From: an uncultured bacterium
GTDB taxonomy: Bacteria > Patescibacteriota > Minisyncoccia > Phycocordibacterales > PALSA-1337
Reading direction: 5' to 3'
NCBI GenBank assembly: GCA_903872035.1
Contig: CAIQIZ010000028.1
Location: 24,038-88,037 of the forward strand
Length of the DNA: 64,000 bases
Part shown: in pieces, positions 4,217 through 64,000 of the stretch
Numbering within the stretch: the first letter of the stretch is position 1
How the letters are laid out: the number at the start of each line of letters is the position of its first letter
Program-made: the position numbers and the translations under genes
The notes under the pieces: model-generated
What the model was told of the DNA's origin: nothing
The model's database searches: none
What the model saw: the letters and a program-made list of their open reading frames with translations, nothing else

Positions 4217-5890
4217 ATGACATTAGTCTTTGATGAAGATAAGCAAAAACGCCGATTAGACGACCTCTTACACAAAGAGGAGGAGGATCTGGTGCAGCTC
4301 TTATCCGGTAAATACGGCGTCGAGTATGTGAACCTCCAAACCATCAACACTAATGCTGATGCTCTGCGATTGATTGAAGAGGCGACTGCTCGAGCTGCCC
4401 AAGTCGCTGCCTACGCCCTCATAGACAAGAAAGTCAAAGTGGCGGCACGAAATCCGCAGGACGAAAAAGTAAAAGCTGTTCTAGAGACCCTCAAAACAAA
4501 GGGTTACACAACAGAACTACATATCACCTCTACACAGAGCTTGGAAAAAGCCTGGAAGACGTACAAGGACCTGTCATTCGCTTATGAAAGCAAAGCTGGT
4601 TCCTTGGAGATATCCAGTGAAGATATCGCTTCGATCATAGATAAGGCCAAAAACATGCCGGCGGTCATCGATATTCTGAAAGGGACCATGGCAGCAAAAA
4701 AAAGCTACCGTGTCTCGCGTATCCTGGAAACTATGGTGGCCGGTGCCTTAGCGGTAGACGCCTCCGACATACACTTGGAACCAGAGGAAACATTCATCCG
4801 TTTGCGTTATCGGTTGGATGGTGTACTCCAGGAACTCATTACCTTTGACGCCGAAACTTATGGCTTGCTTTTGTCGCGCATCAAACTGATCTCTGGCATG
4901 AAGCTCAATATCAAGAAGGATTCCCAGGACGGACGCTTCAGCATCAAACTAGCGATCGGCGAGATAGAGGTGCGCGTCTCCATCCTTCCCGGTGCTTATA
5001 ACGAATCAGTGGTCATGCGTATCTTGAACCCAAAGACCATAAGCGTTCCTTTGGAAGAGCTCGGTATCAATCCGAAATTGCTGACTCTTCTTCTCAAAGA
5101 AATGGACAGGCCTGATGGAATGATCCTTACGACCGGACCGACTGGTTCTGGAAAGACCACTACACTTTACGCATTCCTTAAGAAGATCCACACACCCCAG
5201 GTGAAGATCATCACCATCGAAGACCCGATCGAATACCATTTGCCCGGCATCGTTCAAACCCAAGTCAATGATAAGGGTTATACCTTCTTGGAAGGTTTGC
5301 GAGCCGCTGTCAGACAAGACCCGGATATCATCATGGTAGGTGAAATCCGCGACAACGAAACAGCCGATATTGCGATCAATTCCGCTCTGACCGGTCACAT
5401 GGTCTTTTCGACTCTACACACCAATGACGCCGCTGGCACCTTCCCCCGTCTCATCGACTTGGGTGTGAATTCAAAGGTCATAACCTCGGCCTTGCGCGTG
5501 GCCATGGCCCAACGCTTGGCACGCCGACTCTGTCAGTTCTGTAAAAAAGAAATCGTCCTAGCAGGCGACGCTCAACAAGCCATAGAGACTGTCGTAAATG
5601 ACATCGAGGACAAGGATCTCGTTCCGGCCGATCGTTCGAAGGTTTGGGAACCTGCAGGCTGTGATAAGTGCAACATGACTGGTTACAAAGGCCGTATCGG
5701 CATATATGAAGCTATTTCTACAGACGAGAAAATCGAAGACGCCATAGAACGGAATCCTAGCGAAAGAGAGATCTGGGCTGCAGCAAAAGGCCAAGGGTTA
5801 TTGACCATGAGACAAGATGGTGTCTTAAAGATATTGAAAGGTGTAACTTCCCTCTCAGAACTGGAGAGAGTGATTGCATTGACTGACTAG
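4217..5890 (+). CDS. pilB: Type IV pilus / type II secretion assembly ATPase (PilB/GspE family)
   Basis: 557 aa; Walker A GPTGSGKTT plus Asp and His boxes, and a C-terminal CxxC tetracysteine motif. TATACT lies 6 nt before the ATG. Confidence 0.85.
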   Translation: MTLVFDEDKQKRRLDDLLHKEEEDLVQLLSGKYGVEYVNLQTINTNADALRLIEEATARAAQVAAYALIDKKVKVAARNPQDEKVKAVLETLKTKGYTTELHITSTQSLEKAWKTYKDLSFAYESKAGSLEISSEDIASIIDKAKNMPAVIDILKGTMAAKKSYRVSRILETMVAGALAVDASDIHLEPEETFIRLRYRLDGVLQELITFDAETYGLLLSRIKLISGMKLNIKKDSQDGRFSIKLAIGEIEVRVSILPGAYNESVVMRILNPKTISVPLEELGINPKLLTLLLKEMDRPDGMILTTGPTGSGKTTTLYAFLKKIHTPQVKIITIEDPIEYHLPGIVQTQVNDKGYTFLEGLRAAVRQDPDIIMVGEIRDNETADIAINSALTGHMVFSTLHTNDAAGTFPRLIDLGVNSKVITSALRVAMAQRLARRLCQFCKKEIVLAGDAQQAIETVVNDIEDKDLVPADRSKVWEPAGCDKCNMTGYKGRIGIYEAISTDEKIEDAIERNPSEREIWAAAKGQGLLTMRQDGVLKILKGVTSLSELERVIALTD

Positions 5891-18350: not shown

Positions 18351-18363
18351 TATGTATAAGCTC

Positions 18364-18419
18364 GTAACACTTTGCCAGTTTGAAACTGGCCCACAGTTAT
18401 CAAACTAGCAAAGTGTTAC
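18364..18419 (-). repeat. Family-1 palindromic extragenic element, copy A (subfamily with AACTGTGGGCCAGTTT apex)
   Basis: 12-bp perfect arms GTAACACTTTGC / GCAAAGTGTTAC around a loop containing CTGGCCCACAG. Confidence 0.6.
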
Positions 18420-18434
18420 TCGCTAAACTCATTC

Positions 18435-19199: not shown

Positions 19200-19219
19200 C
19201 ATATCAACCAGAAGACTCC

Positions 19220-19271
19220 GAAAATACTCCCGTTTGCCGCTGGCCCACAGCGCTCAAACAGGAGTATTTTC
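19220..19271 (-). repeat. Family-1 palindromic element, copy B
   Basis: 17-bp arms; the core, read on the minus strand, is GTTTGAGCGCTGTGGGCCAGCGGCAAAC, identical to copy F. Followed on the plus strand by TTTTCTTTG, so it may also terminate yidC. Confidence 0.7.
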
Positions 19272-19297
19272 TTTGTCTTCCAATCTTCGCTCAACTA

Positions 19298-21792: not shown

Positions 21793-22836
21793 TTAATTGG
21801 TTATTGATGGCGCAGCATTTGAAGACGCTGCAGTGAACATGGCTGTAAAACCGGAATTGGCGCTCTGGAGGATCTGCTTATTGTTGGCGATACTCAAGGT
21901 GATATTAGAAGCTCCCGCTGTTCCTACGGGCGCACGCAAGATAACGGAATCATTTGTAGTCAATTCTGGATGCGCGACGTTGTTGATAAGCCAAGAAAAA
22001 GAAAGATCTCCAGATTTATTGGCCGGTTTATTGAAACCGTAAGGAATGGCTAGAATGTTGGCTTCCCTTTGCGAACCGATGCGATACGAAGAGTTGATAG
22101 CCAAGTTGAAGAGCGGACCATAGAGAGGATCGTTTATGTAAAAAGTGATCGAAGGCGATTGGGGGGTTATTGTGATCATGCTTTCAGCTTGGCCGGAGCC
22201 TGTGCGCGGTGTCACGTTCACGGACAGGTCATATGCTCGAGGGACTATATCCCCCACTAACATGATCGACTGTTTTCCATAACCAGACTGGTCTCCGAGG
22301 ATTTGGTTATTCTTGCTCCATTGGTAGATGAGAGTTTTTGGGTCGTATTCAACACCATCTGAATTGGCGATATGAGGAACAGCGACCACAGTAACGGAAT
22401 TTTGATAAACAACGGGCGCTTTTCCTCGGAAGGAAGGTGGCACGTAACCATCTGTTTCAGTTACTAGGTCGACCGAACCTGAACCGATCACGGTGCTTCC
22501 GGTGGTTGTTTGGCCATTATTCGTGACCATTGTGACTTTTATATTCAGTTTTTTACCGAGAGCTGGGGCGGTCACTGTGAGAGTCGTAAGACCGTTGCCG
22601 CTTTGAGCCACTTTACCATTGACCGACCAAGTAATCTTCGATGAATCGATACTGGCACTATAGCTCGCTGCTGTGATCGTTATTTGTTGTCCAGGTGCTG
22701 GATTTTCCGATGAAACCGAGAGGGTGACACCGCCGGATGAGGGAACACTTTGGGCGTGCGAGCAAGGAGCAAGAAGGAAGGAGCAAGAAGCGAGGAGGAC
22801 GCCGGCGGATACGATTGATAGAAAATGACGATTCAT
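21793..22836 (-). CDS. Secreted beta-rich hypothetical protein
   Basis: Signal peptide MNRHFLSIVSAGVLLASCSFLLAPCSHAQ, Thr/Ser-rich. Confidence 0.5.
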   Translation of the reverse strand: MNRHFLSIVSAGVLLASCSFLLAPCSHAQSVPSSGGVTLSVSSENPAPGQQITITAASYSASIDSSKITWSVNGKVAQSGNGLTTLTVTAPALGKKLNIKVTMVTNNGQTTTGSTVIGSGSVDLVTETDGYVPPSFRGKAPVVYQNSVTVVAVPHIANSDGVEYDPKTLIYQWSKNNQILGDQSGYGKQSIMLVGDIVPRAYDLSVNVTPRTGSGQAESMITITPQSPSITFYINDPLYGPLFNLAINSSYRIGSQREANILAIPYGFNKPANKSGDLSFSWLINNVAHPELTTNDSVILRAPVGTAGASNITLSIANNKQILQSANSGFTAMFTAASSNAAPSITN

Positions 22837-26391: not shown

Positions 26392-26483
26392 TATGGCCTA
26401 ATTATAGCGTCAAGCGAGGATTTGTGGAAGCGAGCCTCCACAAAATACGAGCGGAGACGATATATGAGTGGAGCGAATATAGC
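26392..26483 (-). promoter_or_regulatory. Family-2 gene-upstream module: tandem-repeat box, hairpin, -10 TATAAT; promoter of the prgI-virB4 operon
   Basis: On the minus strand TATAAT lies 9 nt before the ATG at 26391. The conserved distal box is GCTATATTCGCTCCACTCATATATCGTCTCCGCTCG. The element fills the entire 92-nt intergenic gap. Confidence 0.5.
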
Positions 26484-33739: not shown

Positions 33740-34535
33740 TGGCTATTTGTAGCCATTGCTCGACAGTCAAATCCTCTGCGCGGATTTTTTCATTTAAGTT
33801 CAATCCTCCCCAGAGCGACTTTAATGCATCTTTGTCCATGAGAATTTCGAGATTTCTTATCAAGAATTTTCTCTTGTGAGCAAAACCGGCTTTGACGATA
33901 CTGAAGAAGAATCTGATCGCAACATCCGATGACTCTTCGCTAGAAAATGTATCGGCCGAGATATTTTCAATCGAAAGAATAGCCGAATCTACTGTTGGTG
34001 GAGGTGTGAATGCCCCCGGTGGAACGGTAGCGATGATCTTCGGCGTGCCGAAAGATTTTACCGAGATTGAAAGAACGCTCTCCTTCCCCTCACCGCCAGG
34101 AAGCGAGCCCAAGATCCGTTTGGCGACTTCCTTCTGAACCAATAGGACCATTCGACTTGGTCGCGGTTCGTGTTCGAGGAACTTTTCAAGGATTGCTCCG
34201 GTTATGTAGTAAGGAATGTTGGCGATGATTGAAAAGGAAGGAGGAAGGAGGAAGGAGGAAGGAGCAAGGATATCACCGCGAATCAATTGTAATTGGCTGG
34301 CGGAAATCTCCTTTGAGAATTTTTCTTTAAGCATGTCGACAGAGCGTTCATCCATTTCAACGGCGACAACCTTTGCGCCGGAGGTAATCAAGGCTTCAGT
34401 AAGGACTCCTGTACCTGGCCCTATTTCCAAGATATTTTCATCAGCTTTGATGTCGGCAGCCGAAATGATCTGATCCAGAACATGTTTTGAATTCAAGAAG
34501 TGTTGACCGAGCGATTTTTTTGGTCTAAGAGTCAT
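33708..34535 (-). CDS. rsmA: 16S rRNA (adenine1518/1519-N6)-dimethyltransferase
   Basis: SLGQHFL N-terminus, SAM motif LEIGPGTG and NIPYYIT. Contains an in-frame PSSFLLPPSF insertion encoded by a GGAAGGA tandem repeat. Confidence 0.85.
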   Translation of the reverse strand: MTLRPKKSLGQHFLNSKHVLDQIISAADIKADENILEIGPGTGVLTEALITSGAKVVAVEMDERSVDMLKEKFSKEISASQLQLIRGDILAPSSFLLPPSFSIIANIPYYITGAILEKFLEHEPRPSRMVLLVQKEVAKRILGSLPGGEGKESVLSISVKSFGTPKIIATVPPGAFTPPPTVDSAILSIENISADTFSSEESSDVAIRFFFSIVKAGFAHKRKFLIRNLEILMDKDALKSLWGGLNLNEKIRAEDLTVEQWLQIATMGLSKKKSG

Positions 34536-36594: not shown

Positions 36595-36698
36595 GGAGGT
36601 ATCTTACAGGAAGAATGATGAATGAGGAATGATCGGCGGTGCAGTAAAAGTTCCTACTACGTCGTTTGGCTCTAGGAGATTATGTTTTAGAAGGCGAA

Positions 36699-36750
36699 GG
36701 AAATCTTTTTGTTTGAGCGCTGGGGGCCAGCGGCAAACAGAAAGATTTCC
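36699..36750 (+). repeat. Family-1 palindromic element, copy C
   Basis: GGAAATCTTTTTGTTTGAGCGCTGGGGGCCAGCGGCAAACAGAAAGATTTCC. Flanks (GAAGGCGAAGG on the 5' side, CGGAGTCTTC on the 3' side) are shared with copies F and B. Confidence 0.7.
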
Positions 36751-36975
36751 GGAGTCTTCGACAATACTTTATTTGACAGTTCGTCAATAAAGGTTATTAA
36801 AAGTAAGGTGTGCATATCTCTCGTTGACAATAAATCCTTGCCTGATAACCTAGAGAGATATCCTACAATAAGTAAGTAAAAAAATGGCCACACAGAGCCA
36901 TTTATTGTATAGGAATAAACACACTGGACGTATGGATGGCAGATCTGGCTGACTTGCGGAAAGAAAAAATTTATT

Positions 36976-38121: not shown

Positions 38122-39663
38122 TCAATTAATCTTTTGTCTATATTGTAGAGTTTCTAGGACATGTTCTTTTTCTATGGACAGGTTTCCTCCAAGATCGGCG
38201 ATCGTTCTGGCGACTTTGATGACTCGGTGGAATCCCCTGCCGGAAAGTCCGAGATTTTTTGCTGAGGCAGTGAGGAGTGATCGGGCATCGTCACTCAGCA
38301 TAATGCATTTCTCTATATCAGAGGCGTCCATTTCACTGTTGTATTGTTTGCGAATTCCGTGTTCAGTAAAACGTTTTTGCTGCGTATCTCTGGCCGCTAT
38401 GACGCGGGCTCTGACGGTTTCCGAATCTTCCGCGTCAGATGTCGGTGCGGCTAGCTTCTCATATTCGATCTTGTGGATATTGAGCCAAATATCCAGCCTG
38501 TCTATGATCGGCCCTGACATCTTGCGTCGATAGTTTTCCAGGGCTTTGGTCGTGCAGGTACATCCTTGGTCCCGACCCTTACCACAAGGGCATGGATTCA
38601 TAGAAGCGATGAGGATGCATTGGGCTGGAAATGTCACGGTGCCGCGGGCGCGGGATATCGTGATATGCCTATCTTCAAGCGGTTGACGCAAGGCTTCGAT
38701 AACCGCCCGATCGAATTCCGGAAATTCATCCATGAAAAGAACGCCGCGATGCGCCAAAGATATCTCGCCGGGCTTGGGTATATTGCCTCCGCCGACTATC
38801 GAAGGATATGAAGCTGTGTGATGAGGCGAACGGAATGGAGGTTCGGTTACCATGAAATCCCCCAGGATGTGAGCAGCGGAATGGACACTGGTAACTTCGA
38901 TCGATTGTTCATAAGAAAGCGGCGGAAGGATCGAGGAAAAGCTTTGGGCTAGCATGGTCTTACCTGTCCCTGGAGGTCCATACATGAGGATGTTGTGGGC
39001 GCCGGCAGCAGCGATCTCTAGCCCACGTTTACTAGATTTGTTACCTCGAATGGCGCGCATGTCCATGATGTAGACCCCCTTTTTCGGCATAGCGGACGGC
39101 AGCCGTGGAGTGAGCGGGATAACTCCTGCCCTGCCCATAAGATGGTCGATCGTCTCCCCAAGTGACGAGACGGGGAATATGGTCAATCCTTGGGCGAGCG
39201 ACGCCTCCTCTTGGTTTTCTTTAGGAATATACACTTGAGTAAATCCTTGCGCAGTCGCCTGACAAAGGATCGGCAATAAGCCGGCGACTCGTCGCACTTT
39301 TCCCTCCAAGGATAGTTCGCCTATAAAGAGCTTATGTTCGGTCTCAAGTTCAATATCTCCGGCTGCAGCTAGATACGCGAGTGCCATAGCTAGATCAAAC
39401 GACGGGCCTTCTTTGCGCAAGTCAGCTGGTGCCAGTGAGATAACCACCTTTTGGTTCTTTTGTTTTGGTGAAACGAATCCCGTGTTTTTGATAGCGGCGG
39501 CGATACGGTCCTTTGATTCTTCAATAGAACGATCCCCCAAACCGACCACGGAAAAGGAGTGAAGTCCATTTGAGATATCTACTTCAACGGTAATGATTTC
39601 CGATGTCAGGCCGATGAGTTCAGCGCAGTATGATTTTGCTAGGCTCATACTCGCATCATACAA
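38122..39663 (-). CDS. YifB/ComM family Mg-chelatase-like AAA+ ATPase
   Basis: 513 aa; Walker A GPPGTGKT, Lon-like N-domain, C4 zinc motif. Confidence 0.85.
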   Translation of the reverse strand: MYDASMSLAKSYCAELIGLTSEIITVEVDISNGLHSFSVVGLGDRSIEESKDRIAAAIKNTGFVSPKQKNQKVVISLAPADLRKEGPSFDLAMALAYLAAAGDIELETEHKLFIGELSLEGKVRRVAGLLPILCQATAQGFTQVYIPKENQEEASLAQGLTIFPVSSLGETIDHLMGRAGVIPLTPRLPSAMPKKGVYIMDMRAIRGNKSSKRGLEIAAAGAHNILMYGPPGTGKTMLAQSFSSILPPLSYEQSIEVTSVHSAAHILGDFMVTEPPFRSPHHTASYPSIVGGGNIPKPGEISLAHRGVLFMDEFPEFDRAVIEALRQPLEDRHITISRARGTVTFPAQCILIASMNPCPCGKGRDQGCTCTTKALENYRRKMSGPIIDRLDIWLNIHKIEYEKLAAPTSDAEDSETVRARVIAARDTQQKRFTEHGIRKQYNSEMDASDIEKCIMLSDDARSLLTASAKNLGLSGRGFHRVIKVARTIADLGGNLSIEKEHVLETLQYRQKIN

Positions 39664-39736
39664 GATGGAGATGAAGAAACTGTGAAGAAACCCTCAAAAA
39701 ATGATAAAAAGAGGTTCAAGAAACAATGAAGATTAT

Positions 39737-39807
39737 GGGGCAACGTAAATATGTACTGTTCCATAACTGTGGGCCAGTTTGAAACAGTACATATTTACGT
39801 TGCCCCA
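39737..39807 (+). repeat. Family-1 element, copy D: 24-bp perfect hairpin with AACTGTGGGCCAGTTTGAA apex
   Basis: GGGGCAACGTAAATATGTACTGTT at 39737-39760 pairs perfectly with AACAGTACATATTTACGTTGCCCC at 39784-39807. Confidence 0.7.
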
Positions 39808-46107: not shown

Positions 46108-46902
46108 ATGCGAATCATCTCCTGGAATGTGAACGGTATCAGATCTGTAGTAAAAAAAGGCTTATTTACTCCGTTTATTGAAAAATATCAGCCGGATATT
46201 TTGTGCTTGCAGGAAACCAAAGCCGAACAAGGTCAAGCAGTCATCGATCTAAGCGGATACGAGGAATACTGGAATTCGGCCAAGAAGAAGGGTTATTCTG
46301 GAACAGCAATTTTCACGAAATTAAAACCGATCGCTGTTTTTAATGATCTACCGGAGAATATTTGCACAAAATTTGGCTTGAAGGAGGACAAGTTTGGCGA
46401 TTCCAGGACCGAAGGCCGTGTGATCGCCGCCGAATTCGACAGATTCTTCGTTGTTACGGTTTATACGCCAAACGCAAAGGATGATCTTGGCAGGATTTCC
46501 CTACGTCACAAGCAATGGGACCCCGCATTCTTGGCCTATTGTAAAGAACTCGAATCAAAGAAGCCGGTTATTTTTTGTGGTGACTTGAATGTGGCGCACA
46601 CTCCAGATGATCTGGCGCGGCCGAAGGAAAATGAGGGATTGAAAGGCTTCACCAAAGAAGAACGAGAAGGGTTCCAGAATTTCATCGACGCCGGATTCAT
46701 CGATACATTCAGGATGTTCAATAAAGGCAATGGTTTTTACACATGGTGGTCTCATTGGTCCAATGCCCGAGCCCGAAATATTGGTTGGAGGATAGATTAC
46801 ATGATGGTCTCAAATACGTTGAAGAACAAGGTTGAATCAGCGGCTATTCACAGCGAGGTTTTGGGATCCGACCACTGCCCTATTGAAGTTGTTATCAAGT
46901 GA
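46108..46902 (+). CDS. xthA: Exodeoxyribonuclease III
   Basis: MRIISWNVNGIRS N-terminus; EEP-fold catalytic motifs. Confidence 0.85.
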   Translation: MRIISWNVNGIRSVVKKGLFTPFIEKYQPDILCLQETKAEQGQAVIDLSGYEEYWNSAKKKGYSGTAIFTKLKPIAVFNDLPENICTKFGLKEDKFGDSRTEGRVIAAEFDRFFVVTVYTPNAKDDLGRISLRHKQWDPAFLAYCKELESKKPVIFCGDLNVAHTPDDLARPKENEGLKGFTKEEREGFQNFIDAGFIDTFRMFNKGNGFYTWWSHWSNARARNIGWRIDYMMVSNTLKNKVESAAIHSEVLGSDHCPIEVVIK

Positions 46903-46910
46903 ATACGGAT

Positions 46911-46958
46911 CATCTTACTCATTTGGGCGCTGTGGGCCAGCGACAAATGAGTAAGATG
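46911..46958 (+). repeat. Family-1 palindromic element, copy E
   Basis: 15-bp perfect arms CATCTTACTCATTTG / CAAATGAGTAAGATG around GGCGCTGTGGGCCAGCGA; begins 9 nt after the xthA stop. Confidence 0.65.
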
Positions 46959-47467
46959 TGAGTATTCACTGTAGAGTTTCATGTAAAAGTAAAATCGCCA
47001 GAGGCGAGTTCAGATAGAATCCCGCATGGCGATTTTTGAAACACGCGGAATCTAAAGAACTCTTGGGTCTGTTGACCCCTCAGACCCTAAATGTTTGGAT
47101 CTGATTTCATCCACACCATTCCTGATAATTAGACGCACAGACTAATTATTGTAGTAGGTGATAGTGTGCTCTGTCTTTTTTTTTAGGTGCTCTCTCGTTC
47201 GAGGAGCTATAATTTTTTGAGACAAGATGCACTATCATCCTTAGCAACGGAAGGATGATATTTTAAATTGATTCCGCAAGCTTCGTGACACTGAGTAGTG
47301 TGAAGCCTACCTGACCATATATGAATGAACTGTAGTTTATCTTGTCCGACTTTCTGTCGAACACCTCGGTGACAAACTGGTCTGCGACTATTGTATGTCT
47401 TATAAAGGACAATGTAAAGGTCATAACTGTGGATAACTCGAGAATAAGTATGTCCTATATAAATAAT

Positions 47468-49042: not shown

Positions 49043-49114
49043 GCGCCCGTAGTGAAATGGATATCACATCAGTCTTCGGAACTGACGTTGCAGGTTCGAG
49101 TCCTGCCGGGCGCA
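49043..49114 (+). tRNA. tRNA-Arg (anticodon TCG); CCA not encoded
   Basis: Manual cloverleaf: 7-bp acceptor stem, D-arm, anticodon loop CTTCGGA, T-loop TTCGAGT. Confidence 0.8.
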
Positions 49115-49231
49115 CAAATTAGTTAGAGATCCGTACGTCATAAGTCCATAGAATTATGCGTTAATTTAGGCAATTTCTAGGTCGTTTTTGTCGCTTGAAA
49201 GTGAACCATTGACGCAGTATAATACAAGTCT

Positions 49232-49918
49232 ATGAAAAAAGATAAGGAACAGGCCACGGTCTTGAGACAGTCCGGAATGAGCTATTCTGACATCAGAGAG
49301 CGAATGGCTGTGCCGCTAAGCACTTTGTCAAAATGGTTTCACGATCAAAAGTGGTCAAACGACATTGCGATGGAGTCTGCCAAGAGGGCAAGAAGCTCGG
49401 CAGCCATACGGTTGACAGTGCTTAATACCGTCAGGGGCAGTCGACTTCGAAAGATATATGATGATGCCAGTCAAGATGCTCTGATTGACTATTCTGAGTT
49501 GAAGTTTCACCCGCTGTTCATGGCCGGGGTCATGATGTATTGGAGTCATGGTGATAAGACATCGAAGCAACGAATCTCTTTATCGAGCACGGATCCGAAA
49601 GTTATATCGATATTCAAGCTATTCCTGGAAAAGGTCTGTTCTGTAACAAATATGCGGGTACAAGTTTTGATTAGTCGTGAATACAATAGGGAAGTCGAAA
49701 TTCGAGGTTATTGGCAGGAAAACTGTCGTTTGCAGCCACAAAATTTCATTAAAACTATACAGAGCAAACAAATTAAGCCAAAAAAGCAAAGTAATAAGCC
49801 ATATTTCGGTGTTTGCAATCTTATAGTGAATAGTGCATACTTGAAAAACAAAATTTTGAAATGGGTTGAATTGATGTCAGAAGAGATAGTTCAAGAAAAA
49901 TACTTGAGTACAGTTTAG
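49232..49918 (+). CDS. Hypothetical protein with N-terminal HTH, located between tRNA genes
   Basis: LRQSGMSYSDIRERMAVPLSTLSKW resembles a resolvase-type HTH. Leaderless: TTGAAA, 17-nt spacer, TATAAT, 8 nt, ATG. Confidence 0.45.
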   Translation: MKKDKEQATVLRQSGMSYSDIRERMAVPLSTLSKWFHDQKWSNDIAMESAKRARSSAAIRLTVLNTVRGSRLRKIYDDASQDALIDYSELKFHPLFMAGVMMYWSHGDKTSKQRISLSSTDPKVISIFKLFLEKVCSVTNMRVQVLISREYNREVEIRGYWQENCRLQPQNFIKTIQSKQIKPKKQSNKPYFGVCNLIVNSAYLKNKILKWVELMSEEIVQEKYLSTV

Positions 49919-49934
49919 GGAAAGGGAGTCTAAT

Positions 49935-50005
49935 GCGGGTATAGTTTAGTGGTAGAACGTATCGTTGCCAACGATAAGATGGGAGTCCGATTCTCCCTAC
50001 CCGCA
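49935..50005 (+). tRNA. tRNA-Gly (anticodon GCC); CCA not encoded; atypical T-loop TCCGATT
   Basis: Manual cloverleaf with perfect 7-bp acceptor stem and anticodon loop TTGCCAA. Confidence 0.75.
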
Positions 50006-50217
50006 CAGGAAGAAGGTGTTGCAGAACAATCATCGAAATTACGCATAGATCCATGTTTCAGGGACGATTTTTTGTTGTCTGTTAACAATGTCTCTGGAAA
50101 ATGGCTTACCACCGTAGATTAAAAGACAAACAGTGGATAAACCTGTGTACAGAGGTGATAAGAGACACGGAATATGGCTAACAATCGTTAATTTCTACTA
50201 ATTAATGACTTATTGAC

Positions 50218-50673
50218 ATGACTTTATCAACAAAAAGTGACCCAGATTATCAAAACGTTCGCGCTAGAAACAGACTAAAGGGAAACTTGGGTGAGAATAT
50301 AGCCTGTAAATACTTGATGGAAAGGGGATTTGATATTTCTGACAGGAATTATAGAAAACCATGGGGAGAATTGGACATTATTGCGGTCAAAGACAGTGTT
50401 ATTCATTTCGTTGAGGTAAAAAGTGTTGCAGTTAGGGGATTACCGTCGCTTAGATTAGAAAAGGGTTCAATTCATGATGGTTTGCCGGCTCATAGTCCCG
50501 AGGAAAATGTTCACGCTTTCAAATTGAAGCAAATCAGGAAGATGATAAGGACCTATTTTAGTGAGAGGGAGGTTGAATGCGAAAGAGAATTCCGGTTCCA
50601 TGTCATTTGCGTGTACCTAAATATGGATACTCGTTTGGCCCGCGTCCGCTGGATCGAAAATATTATTATATAA
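50218..50673 (+). CDS. YraN-family (UPF0102) endonuclease-like protein
   Basis: GENIACKYLMERGF...GELDIIAV pattern. Confidence 0.65.
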   Translation: MTLSTKSDPDYQNVRARNRLKGNLGENIACKYLMERGFDISDRNYRKPWGELDIIAVKDSVIHFVEVKSVAVRGLPSLRLEKGSIHDGLPAHSPEENVHAFKLKQIRKMIRTYFSEREVECEREFRFHVICVYLNMDTRLARVRWIENIII

Positions 50674-50755
50674 TTTTTGCCTTTTATGCTAGGATAGTTT
50701 CCATTGATGCTGGATTGCTGGTTGTTGTTAGCAGTAGGGGTCTGGTCTTTCAAAT

Positions 50756-50828
50756 CGGGGCGTGGTGTAACGGCTAACATGCCTCTTTTGGGAAGAGGTG
50801 ACTCCGGGTTCGAATCCCGGCGCCCCGA
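50756..50828 (+). tRNA. tRNA-Pro (anticodon TGG); CCA not encoded
   Basis: Perfect 7-bp acceptor stem, anticodon loop TTTGGGA, T-loop TTCGAAT. Confidence 0.8.
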
Positions 50829-50860
50829 CAAGCTTAGTGTGCTAAAATTACGAGAACATC

Positions 50861-51376
50861 ATGGTTCAAGATCCTGGAAATCCATATAAGAAAGTGATGA
50901 ATTTCTTTGATAAGTTTGAGGACCATGTTCGTGCTCGATTAAGCAGGTTTCCGATTCTCTATACATTTATTGGCGGCGTAGCCATTGTCTTGTTCTGGCG
51001 CGGTGTCTGGCATACGGCTGATATCTTGGAAGGACAGGGAGGGTGGCTCGGCTGGATATTCTATGAACCGATCAATTTGATCATTGTGGTCCTGATCCTG
51101 TTGGCGACTGGTCTCTTCGTCTCATACTTTATCGGAGACACGATTCTTATGAGTGGAATTAAGCAAGAAAAAAAGACGACTGATCGAACGGAGAAGGAGA
51201 TCAAGGAAGAGGAAGAAGAGATCAAAAAAGAGGATGCGGAAATCGCCAAGTTACGGACGAATATATCGGAAATGAAAACTGAGGTGGACGAAATCCGTGA
51301 TTTTGTCGAGCATGTCAGCAAAGAGCATTTAAAGCACGACAATAAGGCTGGAGAGAAAGGGAAGCTGTCAGAGTAG
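50861..51376 (+). CDS. Hypothetical membrane protein with coiled-coil C-terminus
   Basis: Two TM helices followed by a Glu/Lys-rich helix. Confidence 0.45.
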   Translation: MVQDPGNPYKKVMNFFDKFEDHVRARLSRFPILYTFIGGVAIVLFWRGVWHTADILEGQGGWLGWIFYEPINLIIVVLILLATGLFVSYFIGDTILMSGIKQEKKTTDRTEKEIKEEEEEIKKEDAEIAKLRTNISEMKTEVDEIRDFVEHVSKEHLKHDNKAGEKGKLSE

Positions 51377-51414
51377 TGAAATATCCTAACTTTTGCTAGT
51401 ATATCTCACACAAA

Positions 51415-51485
51415 GCGGGATTAGTTAAATGGTATAATAACAGTTTTCCAAACTGTGGTCGGGAGTTCGATTCTCCCATCCCGCA
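51415..51485 (+). tRNA. tRNA-Gly (anticodon TCC); CCA not encoded
   Basis: Acceptor GCGGGAT / ATCCCGC, anticodon loop TTTCCAA, T-loop TTCGATT. Confidence 0.8.
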
Positions 51486-51496
51486 CAAATTAAAAT

Positions 51497-52250: not shown

Positions 52251-52334
52251 TAGTATAGCGGCAAGCGAGGATTTGTGGAAGCTTGCTTCCACAAGATCCG
52301 AGCGCAGACGACGTATGAGCGAAGCGATTATAGC
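52251..52334 (-). promoter_or_regulatory. Family-2 gene-upstream module upstream of the metallophosphoesterase gene
   Basis: Shares both conserved boxes and the ATTTGTGGAAGC hairpin arm with the copy at 26392. The -10 is TATACT, 44 nt before the ATG. Confidence 0.5.
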
Positions 52335-56373: not shown

Positions 56374-56503
56374 CAAGTTTCGTGAGAACATGTCACTTCT
56401 CGAGACACGGAGAAATTCTGCAGAATTTCTCCTAGTCCTCGACGATTTCTTGCTAGAAATCATCTGCGGAGTCTCTCGAAATGACATGTTCGCACGAAAC
56501 TTG
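56374..56503. promoter_or_regulatory. Large multi-hairpin structured element upstream of rny
   Basis: An imperfect outer stem of about 33 bp (56374-56406 with 56471-56503) encloses a perfect 24-nt palindrome GGAGAAATTCTGCAGAATTTCTCC at 56409-56432 and the hairpin GATTTCT-TGCT-AGAAATC. Confidence 0.35.
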
Positions 56504-59142: not shown

Positions 59143-60315
59143 TTATTTTCCACTTTCCAAAAACTGGAATACTTTCTCGTTAGTCAAAACAGTTTCAGCA
59201 TACACAGCTGCTCTTTCGCGATCGGCTTCTTTGTAGTGTTCGACGATATGATCTACTTCGGCCTCAATCTCTTTCTGATCAGGCTGGATCTTCTCGGTAA
59301 CAGCTATCGAATTTAAGATCAATTGAAGCTTGGCTTTTTTCTCCGCATGTGGTCTCCATTCTTTGCGGATCTCCTCAAGCGACTTTTTGGCATGTTTCAA
59401 GTAATCTTCCATCTTCACGCCCATACGTTCGATGTCTTGTTCGAATTGCACTTGAGTCCGATTGAGTTCGGTTTCGATCATGATATCGGGTAATTCGATT
59501 TTGGTCGCTTCTGTGATAGCGTCAGCGATACGTAGACGAGATTTTTCCCTGGCTTCATCTTTCTTGTTCTCGCCGATCATGACGCGGACTTTCTTTTTGA
59601 AGTCTTCAATATCCGTAAAGTCGCTGCCCAAACCGCGGACGAATTCGTCATTGAATTCTGGTAACGAATCCATGATAGCCTTCTCATGTTCCTCGGCAGA
59701 CATTTTTGCGTGGTCATGACCTTCATGGGAGGCACGGGATTTGCGCAGTCGAAGTATAGCCTCGTCTACATCCTTGTCAGTCACTTCCAATTCTTTCGGT
59801 GCAGATTTCTTCACGGCCTGTGCAGCCAGCTTCTTGTAATCCGGAAGCTTTACGTCCGGGATTATGGATGTAGTGGCTTTGAATTCTAGAGGATTGCCGC
59901 TGGCTAGCTTGGTGATGGTCACTTGTGGCTTGCCTATAGCATCGATCTTGTTCTCAATGAGAATCTCTACGTATGCTCGCGAAAGCGCCATCTCGGCCAT
60001 TTCTTCATTTACTGCCGCCTCTCCGACTTTGGCAACTAAGACGTTCTCCGGGATCATGCCTTTGCGGAAGCCGTCTATCGTTATAGACTCATTGATATTC
60101 TTTATTGCTTCCTTGCGGTATTTTTCCCAGGTCTCTGAGGGGATGGTCCCAACGATCTCAACTTTGGATCCGTCGAGTTTATTAATAGTTGCCGAGCTGA
60201 AGGACTTGTTAGATGCCGCTTGAGCTGCGGTGGGAGCGGTGGGCGTATTGGCCGGCTCCTGTGGATTTGAGTTGGTCATGAAAAGCAGTCTACAAGAAGA
60301 AGGGGTAAGGAGCAA
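59143..60315 (-). CDS. tig: Trigger factor (N-terminal ribosome-binding and C-terminal chaperone domains; PPIase domain apparently absent)
   Basis: GFRKGMIPENV signature. N-terminal extension; the start may be MTNSNPQE at 60279. Confidence 0.7.
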   Translation of the reverse strand: MLLTPSSCRLLFMTNSNPQEPANTPTAPTAAQAASNKSFSSATINKLDGSKVEIVGTIPSETWEKYRKEAIKNINESITIDGFRKGMIPENVLVAKVGEAAVNEEMAEMALSRAYVEILIENKIDAIGKPQVTITKLASGNPLEFKATTSIIPDVKLPDYKKLAAQAVKKSAPKELEVTDKDVDEAILRLRKSRASHEGHDHAKMSAEEHEKAIMDSLPEFNDEFVRGLGSDFTDIEDFKKKVRVMIGENKKDEAREKSRLRIADAITEATKIELPDIMIETELNRTQVQFEQDIERMGVKMEDYLKHAKKSLEEIRKEWRPHAEKKAKLQLILNSIAVTEKIQPDQKEIEAEVDHIVEHYKEADRERAAVYAETVLTNEKVFQFLESGK

Positions 60316-60422
60316 GCAGGGCGGAGCAAGGAGCGAGGAGGAATAACTACGAAAAAAAGAGAGCCAAATGACCCTCCTTTTAATTTGCGATTCTCCTTGC
60401 TTCTTACTCCTTGTTTCCTGCC

Positions 60423-63320: not shown

Positions 63321-63415
63321 TTTTTGAGCATAAGCTAATAATTCTTGAGCATATTTTACCATGTTTCTGGCAAGTGGGTAATTATGAAAGCTTCGTAGGT
63401 TGATTGAAGGCGAAA

Positions 63416-63465
63416 GAAATCCTGCTGTTTGAGCGCTGTGGGCCAGCGGCAAACGGCAGGATTTC
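63416..63465 (+). repeat. Family-1 palindromic element, copy F
   Basis: GAAATCCTGCTGTTTGAGCGCTGTGGGCCAGCGGCAAACGGCAGGATTTC; 5' flank GAAGGCGAAAG as in copy C. Confidence 0.7.
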
Positions 63466-63487
63466 TAGAGCCTTTAGTAAGTTTTGA

Positions 63488-64000
63488 TTATTTGATAAGG
63501 AAAGCGACGATGAGCAACGCCACGATGTTCAATATCTTGATCATCGGATTGATGGCCGGACCGGCAGTGTCCTTGTAAGGATCTCCGACGGTATCGCCAG
63601 TAACAGCAGCTTTGTGAGCGTCTGAACCCTTACCGCCATGAGCACCTCCTTCGATGTGTTTCTTGGCATTGTCCCAAGCTCCGCCACCGGAAGTCATGGA
63701 GATGGCCACGAATAAGCCGGTGACTATGGAACCGACAAGCAAGCCGCCGAGAGCGACAGGACCGAGGATGAAGCCGACTACTATTGGCGCAAGTACTGGA
63801 ATGAGTGCTGGCAGGATCATTTCTTTGATAGCGGCTGAAGTGACGATGTCTACACAGCGAGCGTAATCAGGCTTGGCAGTGCCTTGCATGATGCCTTTGA
63901 TCTCGCGGAATTGGCGGCGAACTTCCTCGACGACTTTACCAGCGGCTTTGCCAACAGCTTCCATGGAAAGGGCGGCGAAGTAATAGGGGAGAAGGCCTCC
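63488..64000 (-). CDS. hppA: Membrane-bound H+-translocating pyrophosphatase, C-terminal part (5'-partial; continues past the window end)
   Basis: [21 protein letters not shown] signature; the frame is open to position 64000. Confidence 0.8.

Follow-up and report, generated by a model that had tools for sequence, protein, structure and literature searches.

Compensated stem evolution in a family of dispersed palindromic elements of Paceibacteria

The 64-kb stretch of DNA analysed here (the window) comes from an uncultured representative of the Patescibacteria, or candidate phyla radiation (CPR), whose genome encodes dnaA-dnaN and rpmH-rnpA as well as a short yidC gene and a secretion cluster of the PrgI/TraC/TraG type. 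The window is part of a 93.4-kb metagenome contig (JGI 3300009175, Ga0073936_10000159), and the homologues of its YidC are assigned by their sources to Patescibacteria, Paceibacterota or Parcubacteria. Positions 63416-63465 read GAAATCCTGCTGTTTGAGCGCTGTGGGCCAGCGGCAAACGGCAGGATTTC and form the main stem-loop of a longer hairpin at 63406-63475, here called copy F. It is located between an H+-pyrophosphatase gene, whose stop codon is at 63488 (minus strand), and the start of a gene for a protein with a peptidoglycan-binding domain. A preliminary description had compared this hairpin with a related one, copy C, and had taken the base changes between their stems as compensatory, i.e. as a sign of selection on a folded nucleic acid, either RNA or single-stranded DNA (ssDNA), with a defined functional strand. 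Our analysis gives good support to the view that the compensated evolution in the hairpin is genuine, and that the hairpin is a dispersed repeat of the kind known as Rickettsia palindromic elements (RPE), repetitive extragenic palindromes (REP) or miniature inverted-repeat transposable elements (MITE), found here in a new host lineage, and not an RNA gene.

The 11-mer CTGTGGGCCAG at the tip of copy F occurs six times in the window when at most one mismatch is allowed, compared to 0.48 expected occurrences, and none of 100 shuffled sequences reached six. All six occurrences sit in hairpins of 25-35 bp; their free energies range from -42 to -52 kcal/mol and their z-scores from -6.7 to -11. When the entire window was searched with a covariance model and the filters were switched off, exactly these six copies and no other convincing match were returned:

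18359-18424, minus strand: copy A, core at 18386-18396, apical-stem subfamily AACTG/CAGTT
19206-19285, minus strand: copy B, core at 19240-19250, subfamily of copies C and F
36690-36759, plus strand: copy C, core variant CTGGGGGCCAG at 36720-36730, subfamily of copy F (84% identity over 69 nt)
39736-39807, plus strand: copy D, core at 39767-39777, subfamily AACTG/CAGTT, 27-bp stem with one C·A mismatch
46899-46970, plus strand: copy E, core at 46930-46940, between convergent xth-like and CCA-adding-enzyme genes
63406-63475, plus strand: copy F, core CTGTGGGCCAG at 63436-63446, main stem 63416-63465, outer stem GAAGGC/GCCTTT

Copy F reaches 80.8 bits with the covariance model (free energy -49, z -7.7), and copy D shows a free energy of -51.6 and a z-score of -11. 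The genomic surroundings differ from copy to copy. Copy A separates rnpA from yidC; as the two genes are on the plus strand, the mRNA would contain the strand complementary to the element. Copy B is located between the convergent yidC and a gene of unknown function. Copy C is found in a divergent region, flanked by uvrD/pcrA on the minus strand and by a gene for an M23 peptidase on the plus strand, while copy D separates a dksA-like gene from comM (both minus strand) and adjoins a conserved leader of approximately 90 nt upstream of comM, which is described below. The first bases of copy E (46900-46902) are at the same time the TGA stop codon of the xth-like gene (open reading frame 46108-46902), and the insertion of this copy appears to have redefined the 3' end of that gene. 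A seventh copy, G, which belongs to the subfamily of B, C and F, is located on the same contig 6.5 kb beyond the window. The copy density is low, with about one element per 11 kb.

Further members were found in related contigs and loci that were fetched for comparison and carry L-numbers (L125, L136, L141 etc.). A scan of metagenome contigs with a 38-bit pattern gave ten loci, seven of them with true members, and the covariance model added two divergent copies. The resulting set of 20 non-redundant copies, seven from the source contig and 13 from other metagenome contigs, was aligned without gaps on the core. With z-scores of -6.5 to -11 throughout, the family represents a dispersed palindromic repeat with a long hairpin, and clean copies measure 66-72 nt. 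Its apex consists of a 5-nt loop, TGGGC, on a 5-bp stem with covariation of its own (CGCTG/CAGCG or AACTG/CAGTT). Below this apical stem follow a 2x1 internal loop, then usually GTTTG/CAAAC, and finally a lower stem of 12-20 bp, to which an internal loop rich in purines and an outer stem of 6 bp are often added. The 11-nt core is unchanged in 17 of the 20 copies, and the same apex sits on different stems in the 13 copies from outside the source contig. The idea that modular stems are swapped under a fixed apex was rejected, because lower-stem identity between copies forms a continuum from 0.9 to about 0.2, as expected when the whole element is homologous and has gradually diverged. Broader searches were less productive. 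A 14-base pattern, which is too short for a collection of that size, gave only chance matches without a hairpin in 596 Gb of genomes, and a scan of viral contigs gave one chance match, again without a hairpin. A 144-aa pseudo-protein profile translated in six frames had no match at E<=10 among 5.8 billion protein sequences, for which the element matches are too short. Among 240 fetched proteins, the same profiles matched solely the SMC protein of L136, which carries the element itself.

In the middle of the stem, copy C reads CTTTTTG paired with CAGAAAG and copy F reads CCTGCTG paired with CGGCAGG, as had been quoted correctly. The preliminary description had counted four positions changed on both arms at once. 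Four pairs are indeed affected, but only three bases are altered on each arm: two pairs are true double changes (alignment columns 27/64 and 29/62), and the remaining two are single changes via T·G (30/61 and 31/60). An ungapped alignment of the whole element reveals 12 differing positions. They comprise three pairs altered on both sides (20/71, where G-C became A-T, 27/64 and 29/62), four single changes that each result in G·T on the CTGTGGGCCAG strand (30/61, 31/60, 15/76 and 11/80), and two changes at unpaired positions (column 44 in the loop and column 72 in an internal loop). No difference over the entire element breaks a pair, which makes the case for preserved pairing stronger than first stated. 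The cores of the two copies had been described as identical; this needs correction, as C carries CTGGGGGCCAG with a change of the loop T to G. Similarly, the statement that stem mismatches always place T opposite G holds for B, C and F, and also for A, but not for copy D with its C·A (column 35/56).

The family as a whole permits a much broader assessment, for which covariation was scored on a 22-pair core structure across the 20 copies, i.e. in 440 cells. Standard pairs occupy 95.9% of these cells, compared to 37-43% when the partners are slid by 1-3 columns; changes on both sides were found in 20 of the 22 pairs (124 cells), and none of 500 shuffles reached any of the observed measures. These values support a constraint on a folded, self-complementary nucleic acid. 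Per-column diversity rises from 0.02 in the loop and approximately 0.2 in the apical stem to approximately 0.6 in the lower stem, and the flanks reach 0.71. Uncompensated changes at equal rates in stem and loop, which had been named as the pattern speaking against such a constraint, are clearly not what is seen. The lower stem evolves almost as freely as the non-homologous flank, yet it stays paired. The covariation supports a conserved secondary structure such as a structured RNA would show, and a DNA palindrome would show it equally.

One pair of orthologous insertions shows how a stem changes in place. At the site in the RsmH gene where copy L138d resides, L141 has a decayed copy in the same orientation, in which the loop TGGGC has become TCGAT and 18 of 20 lower-stem positions are still paired. 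The two copies differ at 8 of 40 stem positions, which comprise two compensated doubles (four positions), two changes from G-C to G·T and two mismatches. In simulations with 4+4 random substitutions, at least two compensated doubles arose with P=0.02 and 18 retained pairs with P=0.01. Pairing is therefore not merely a sign of recent insertion. Additional orthologous copies in RsmH genes were sought for the same comparison: L145 has a short unrelated segment at the site, and L146-L148 lack synteny.

The 22 pairs also reveal a difference between the two strands. Among the non-Watson-Crick cells, G·T (14) prevails over A·C (4) and purine·purine (13) over pyrimidine·pyrimidine (1). Folding of the CTGTGGGCCAG strand is more favourable than that of its complement in 14 of 19 copies when RNA parameters are used (mean -3.5 kcal/mol) and in 16 of 19 when DNA parameters are used (-2.3 kcal/mol). 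However, several of the asymmetric events are shared by descent, namely T30·G61, T31·G60 in B and F, and the apex itself, and part of the energy difference resides in the shared apex. Hence, the strand asymmetry is real and modest in size, and the proposal of a defined functional strand receives modest support that is weakened by this common ancestry. Relative to host transcription, about six copies have the same and six the opposite orientation. In the co-directional contexts of A, D and F, the mRNA would contain the complement, in which the wobbles become C·A. The asymmetry thus follows the orientation of the element and not the host transcript, which fits an ssDNA hairpin or inherited family features better than RNA selection at each site.

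Compensation could in principle arise without any selection, by quasipalindrome correction, an established mutational mechanism in bacteria in which intramolecular template switching during replication or repair copies mutations from one arm to the other. Among the alternatives this one survives best, and we regard it as unlikely. It would readily account for pairing that is kept in coding and intergenic DNA and in any orientation, and also for the compensated doubles in the orthologous copy with the decayed loop, where a sequence-specific function seems to be lost. Nevertheless, such correction would erase asymmetries that persist across the family, i.e. the 2x1 internal loop, tandem G·A pairs, the 3x3 loop rich in purines that is found in the B/C/F/G subfamily, and the wobble T30·G61, which recurs among the copies. 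Moreover, the process is strand-symmetric, and the bias among the mismatches is not expected from it.

Seven copies in the related contigs are located within long open frames. According to Pfam, their hosts are TsaD, RsmH, SMC (two copies), dihydroorotate dehydrogenase (PyrD), an S-adenosylmethionine methyltransferase and a VirD4/TraG-like ATPase. TsaD has approximately 22 extra amino acids exactly at the element, its residues 206-232 aligning to five residues of 8iey_A; in RsmH, where the element has the opposite orientation, there are approximately 21 extra amino acids, with residues 37-58 aligning to one residue of 1m6y_A. Host genes read their copies in three or more frames and in either orientation, and in most copies four or five of the six frames are open. 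The frame that usually bears a TGA, GTTTGAGCG, has turned into the TGA-free GTTTCAGCG in L139b, the single copy that is read by its host in that frame. As a separate observation, the SMC orthologues P0159, P0189, P0161, P0207, P0174 and P0175 contain unrelated inserts of 14-31 aa at the two sites at which the SMC of L136 carries the element (alignment columns 688 and 866). Some of these inserts comprise peptides such as SFPRKRESS or AGIQ..PRLRGDD, which look as if other palindromic repeats rich in GC had been read through, and in-frame repeat insertion may be common at hot spots of the SMC coiled coil. Two further SMC orthologues, P0171 and P0223, contain inteins.

The distribution among relatives is patchy. 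Copies A and B are absent from the orthologous sites of relatives whose YidC is 87%, 84% and 76% identical. The site of copy A is empty in L125, L126 and L129, where the rnpA-yidC gap measures 10-35 nt (30 nt in L125 vs 84 nt in the window), and the site of copy B is empty in L125, where the gap after yidC is 3 nt compared to 98 nt. L136 has three copies within and just past smc, and the 81% identical orthologue in L141 shows clean gaps at these places, which measure 72 nt (24 codons) at the first site, a net 45 nt at the second, located in a variable linker, and 97 nt at the third. Among 120 SMC orthologues the element is confined to the cluster of L136 itself, and no copy was present in a further 68 kb from other relatives. 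For the second of the smc sites, site b, it was considered whether the stem had been copied from the host flank, given the similarity of the 3' arm to the sequence native to the relative with the empty site. This was rejected on account of the full-length inserts at site a and in TsaD and RsmH, the homology of the L136b arms to other copies, and the position of site b in a length-variable acidic linker. A target-site duplication was likewise considered, and no consistent one emerged. Short repeats exist at copy A (CTCG) and at L136a (GGCGCC, itself palindromic), but their length and position are inconsistent across copies. The net inserts in TsaD and RsmH (63-66 nt) are about as long as the palindrome (66-68 nt) and leave room for a duplication of 0-2 bp at most. 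A small or absent target duplication would fit a mechanism of the HUH type.

Alternatively, the hairpins could be functional RNA elements, such as cis-acting 3'-end or stability hairpins, RNase III sites or small RNAs, with the CTGTGGGCCAG strand active and RNA selection at each locus. Very strong covariation, the excess of G·T over A·C and of purine·purine mismatches on one strand, and the 3.5 kcal/mol higher stability of that strand as RNA would all agree with it. The same is true for the position of copies at gene ends, with convergent genes on the two sides of three copies, and for the invariant loop, as expected of a site contacted by protein or RNA. We nevertheless consider this quite unlikely. 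The even orientation towards host transcription, with the opposite strand in the host mRNA at A, D and F, together with the seven copies that are translated through in housekeeping genes, in three frames and both orientations, argues against a dedicated RNA function, and to this extent the RNA side of the preliminary description is not supported. Furthermore, copy C lies in a divergent promoter region, and close relatives lack copies at the same gene junctions. A run of at least five T on either side is missing in 18 of 19 copies, and Rfam contains no matching family, the sub-threshold hits being generic long-hairpin or miRNA-like models.

The apex could also represent a double-stranded or cruciform site for a host protein, for example a nucleoid or segregation factor, an uptake signal or a recombinase site, and would then be a signal beneficial to the host. 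The near-invariant core is what such a site would look like, and these bacteria have genes of the competence type, namely comM in the window and dprA in L137, as well as a XerC/D-type recombinase. The uptake sequences of Neisseria and Haemophilus, for comparison, are likewise present within coding regions and within inverted repeats that resemble terminators. However, the core never occurs without the long hairpin (six of six in the window), and a mere signal would not need 25-30 paired bases of free sequence. Its low density and its absence from close relatives also speak against a genome-wide signal, and the non-palindromic loop makes a symmetric dimer site unlikely; taken together, this explanation is very improbable. 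Ordinary intrinsic, possibly bidirectional terminators that share a loop by chance are hardly credible: B, E and G lie between convergent genes and F and L136c just past stop codons, but 18 of 19 copies lack T-tracts on both sides, the stems greatly exceed terminator stems in length, and some copies are inside genes or in a divergent promoter region.

Enzymes that might mobilise the element in trans were sought in the window and in the fetched loci. The genes and the leader at issue are the following:

L138:5155-5757 and L141:18064-18657: Y1_Tnp genes (PF01797; IS200/RAYT-like, RAYT standing for REP-associated tyrosine transposase), proteins 65% identical
Window 39640-39745 (minus strand), L137:1610-1700, L138:5050-5160 and L141:18650-18780: conserved leader of approximately 90 nt

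The two Y1_Tnp genes are syntenic, lie between mraZ and aspS and encode proteins of approximately 200 aa with the HUH motif HIH. The repeat TAGGTCTGACCT, which flanks the gene in L138, recurs in L131 downstream of tsaD. The TAGGTCTGACCT and GGAGGTTTAACCTAAC repeats form a REP-like family of their own in association with the RAYT-like gene, and this looks like a REP/RAYT-type system in Patescibacteria. As a demonstrated mobiliser of the CTGTGGGCCAG element, Y1_Tnp was rejected because its flanking repeats differ, and an HUH/Y1 class for the enzyme behind the CTGTGGGCCAG element is therefore a conjecture. A parent insertion sequence sharing the element ends was found neither in the window nor in the fetched loci.

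The leader, AATCTTCAT..TTGAGnCTTT..TTTTATC..TTTTGAG..TTTCTTCATCT..GTATGAT, occurs only once in the window. It is situated directly upstream of comM in the window, of dprA in L137 and, in L138 and L141, of the RAYT-like Y1_Tnp gene. All these genes serve the handling of ssDNA, and the leader may be a shared promoter or 5' untranslated region, possibly of a competence-type regulon. The position at its upstream edge is taken by a CTGTGGGCCAG hairpin in the window (copy D) and in L137 (L137c), and by a different hairpin in L138. In L137 (632-1516, minus strand), dprA is split into three overlapping open reading frames between two element copies, possibly as a pseudogene with frameshifts, possibly through an error in the assembly.

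Considering all this evidence, copy F is probably one member of a dispersed family of approximately 66-72-nt non-autonomous palindromic elements that spreads as selfish DNA in a group of Paceibacteria (Patescibacteria/CPR). The element would be mobilised in trans, probably through an ssDNA hairpin whose apex is recognised by a putative enzyme, with transposases of the HUH/Y1 type as the foremost candidates. Propagation or tolerance of a copy would require a stem that still folds, and we propose that this requirement led to the covariation and to the bias of one strand towards G·T and purine·purine mismatches. Copies inside genes would survive only where the reading frame stays open and the insertion falls into a permissive loop.

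Several points weigh against this reading. Pfam annotation of the window revealed ordinary housekeeping genes and a single recombinase, which is XerC/D-like, but neither a transposase nor an HUH protein nor a reverse transcriptase, and the Y1_Tnp genes are flanked by lineage-specific inverted repeats, TAGGTCTGACCT in L138 and GGAGGTTTAACCTAAC in L141, and not by the CTGTGGGCCAG element. Known HUH systems (IS200/IS605, REP/RAYT) have their recognition features at the foot of the hairpin, not at its apex. Mobility is read from presence and absence at orthologous sites, a pattern to which precise losses could in principle contribute. All seven copies of the source contig are intergenic and three of them, B, E and G, lie between convergent genes, where a useful hairpin, for mRNA 3' end protection or termination, would also be kept. 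The strand statistics, made without correction for ancestry, overstate the independence of events that are shared by descent, and the evidence for compensation in place is modest and comes from one orthologous pair only.

A more far-reaching version, which we consider quite improbable, would see here an undescribed, CPR-specific mobile element borne by its hairpin, in which the invariant apical stem-loop is the sole sequence handle and the stem is free. Such an element would move as ssDNA, possibly coupled to natural transformation. The possible coupling is suggested by the leader in front of comM, dprA and the RAYT-like Y1_Tnp gene and by copies D and L137c, which are placed exactly at its upstream edge.

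Among known systems, the Rickettsia palindromic elements, i.e. palindromic repeats that lie in frame inside genes (PMC10969869), are the closest analogue. Both are dispersed palindromes in a reduced-genome, host-dependent lineage, lack a transposase of their own and are patchy among related genomes, and both combine intergenic copies with in-frame copies in unrelated housekeeping genes whose frames stay open. The likeness is one of description, and sequence homology is not expected given host lineage and size. RPEs are about 100-150 bp long and are recognised by their sequence and a conserved encoded peptide, whereas the element of the Paceibacteria, hosts that are not alphaproteobacteria, measures 66-72 nt. 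Only its apical part of approximately 30 nt is conserved, the stems being near background and still paired, and none of the seven copies seen in the source genome lies in a gene.

REP/REPIN-RAYT systems and derivatives of IS200/IS605 share with it the short imperfect palindromes and, probably, a functional ssDNA hairpin of one strand marked by wobbles or bulges. They insert without target duplication, which the little room left by the inserts in TsaD and RsmH would fit, and RAYT-like Y1_Tnp genes are encoded in related genomes. REPs, however, are extragenic and have their motif at the foot of the hairpin, whereas here the apex is conserved, copies enter genes, and no conserved motif flanking the hairpin foot was found in the element copies; in addition, the repeats beside the Y1_Tnp genes are, as mentioned, of another kind. 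MITEs (Correia/NEMIS, ERIC, Nezha, QMITE) are also small non-autonomous repeats with inverted-repeat ends, stable hairpins and occasional in-frame host fusions. They keep terminal inverted repeats bound by the transposase and make target duplications, whereas the ends are the most variable part of our element (diversity 0.67-0.69). The attC sites of integrons resemble it in that structure is conserved and sequence is free, and that a folded single strand, chosen by unpaired bases, would be the functional form. They differ in conserving R and L boxes at the stem base and in flanking cassettes beside an integrase, while the present element conserves its apex, has no cassettes and is not accompanied by IntI in the window. 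The unusual features are sequence conservation restricted to the apex and a mobiliser that was not found in the loci examined.

The window contains some other repeats and arrangements. An 81-nt repeat unrelated to the family occurs at 26403-26483 and 52254-52334 (85% identical, both intergenic) and also in L139 (approximately 5197-5285); it contains the hairpin TTTGTGGA/TCCACAAA in its interior and carries TATAGC at either end. Purine-rich short tandem or dispersed repeats of the AAGGAGCAAG type are found near gene boundaries at 22750-22799, 34224-34273 and 60293-60363. At 56400-56435, the near-perfect palindrome GGAGAAATTCTGCAGAATTTCTCC, again unrelated to the family, is part of a longer hairpin (z -3.9) and scores only 14 bits with the covariance model. 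Finally, the tRNA genes Arg-TCG, Gly-GCC, Pro-TGG and Gly-TCC are interleaved with small protein genes at 49043-51486, an unusual arrangement in which a helix-turn-helix-like 228-aa, a UPF0102/YraN-type 151-aa and a 171-aa open reading frame lie between the four tRNA genes.

The genomes of Patescibacteria are tiny and are thought to be poor in repetitive or selfish DNA, and in the searchable literature we found no description of MITE- or RPE-like elements in Patescibacteria/CPR. The family reported here would mean that selfish DNA inside genes, in the style of Rickettsia, recurs in an unrelated lineage with reduced genomes, and it may serve as a marker of recent genome dynamics in uncultivated lineages. 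With its fixed loop and stems saturated with compensated changes, it provides a clean natural data set on hairpin pairing in DNA, and the apical stem-loop offers a defined bait for the mobilising enzyme. It is also a warning for annotation, as insertions of approximately 22 aa in CPR proteins can be read-through of a repeat. If the reading as a CPR-specific mobile element were true, it would be a recurrent source of insertions of approximately 22 residues in essential proteins of these ultra-small bacteria.

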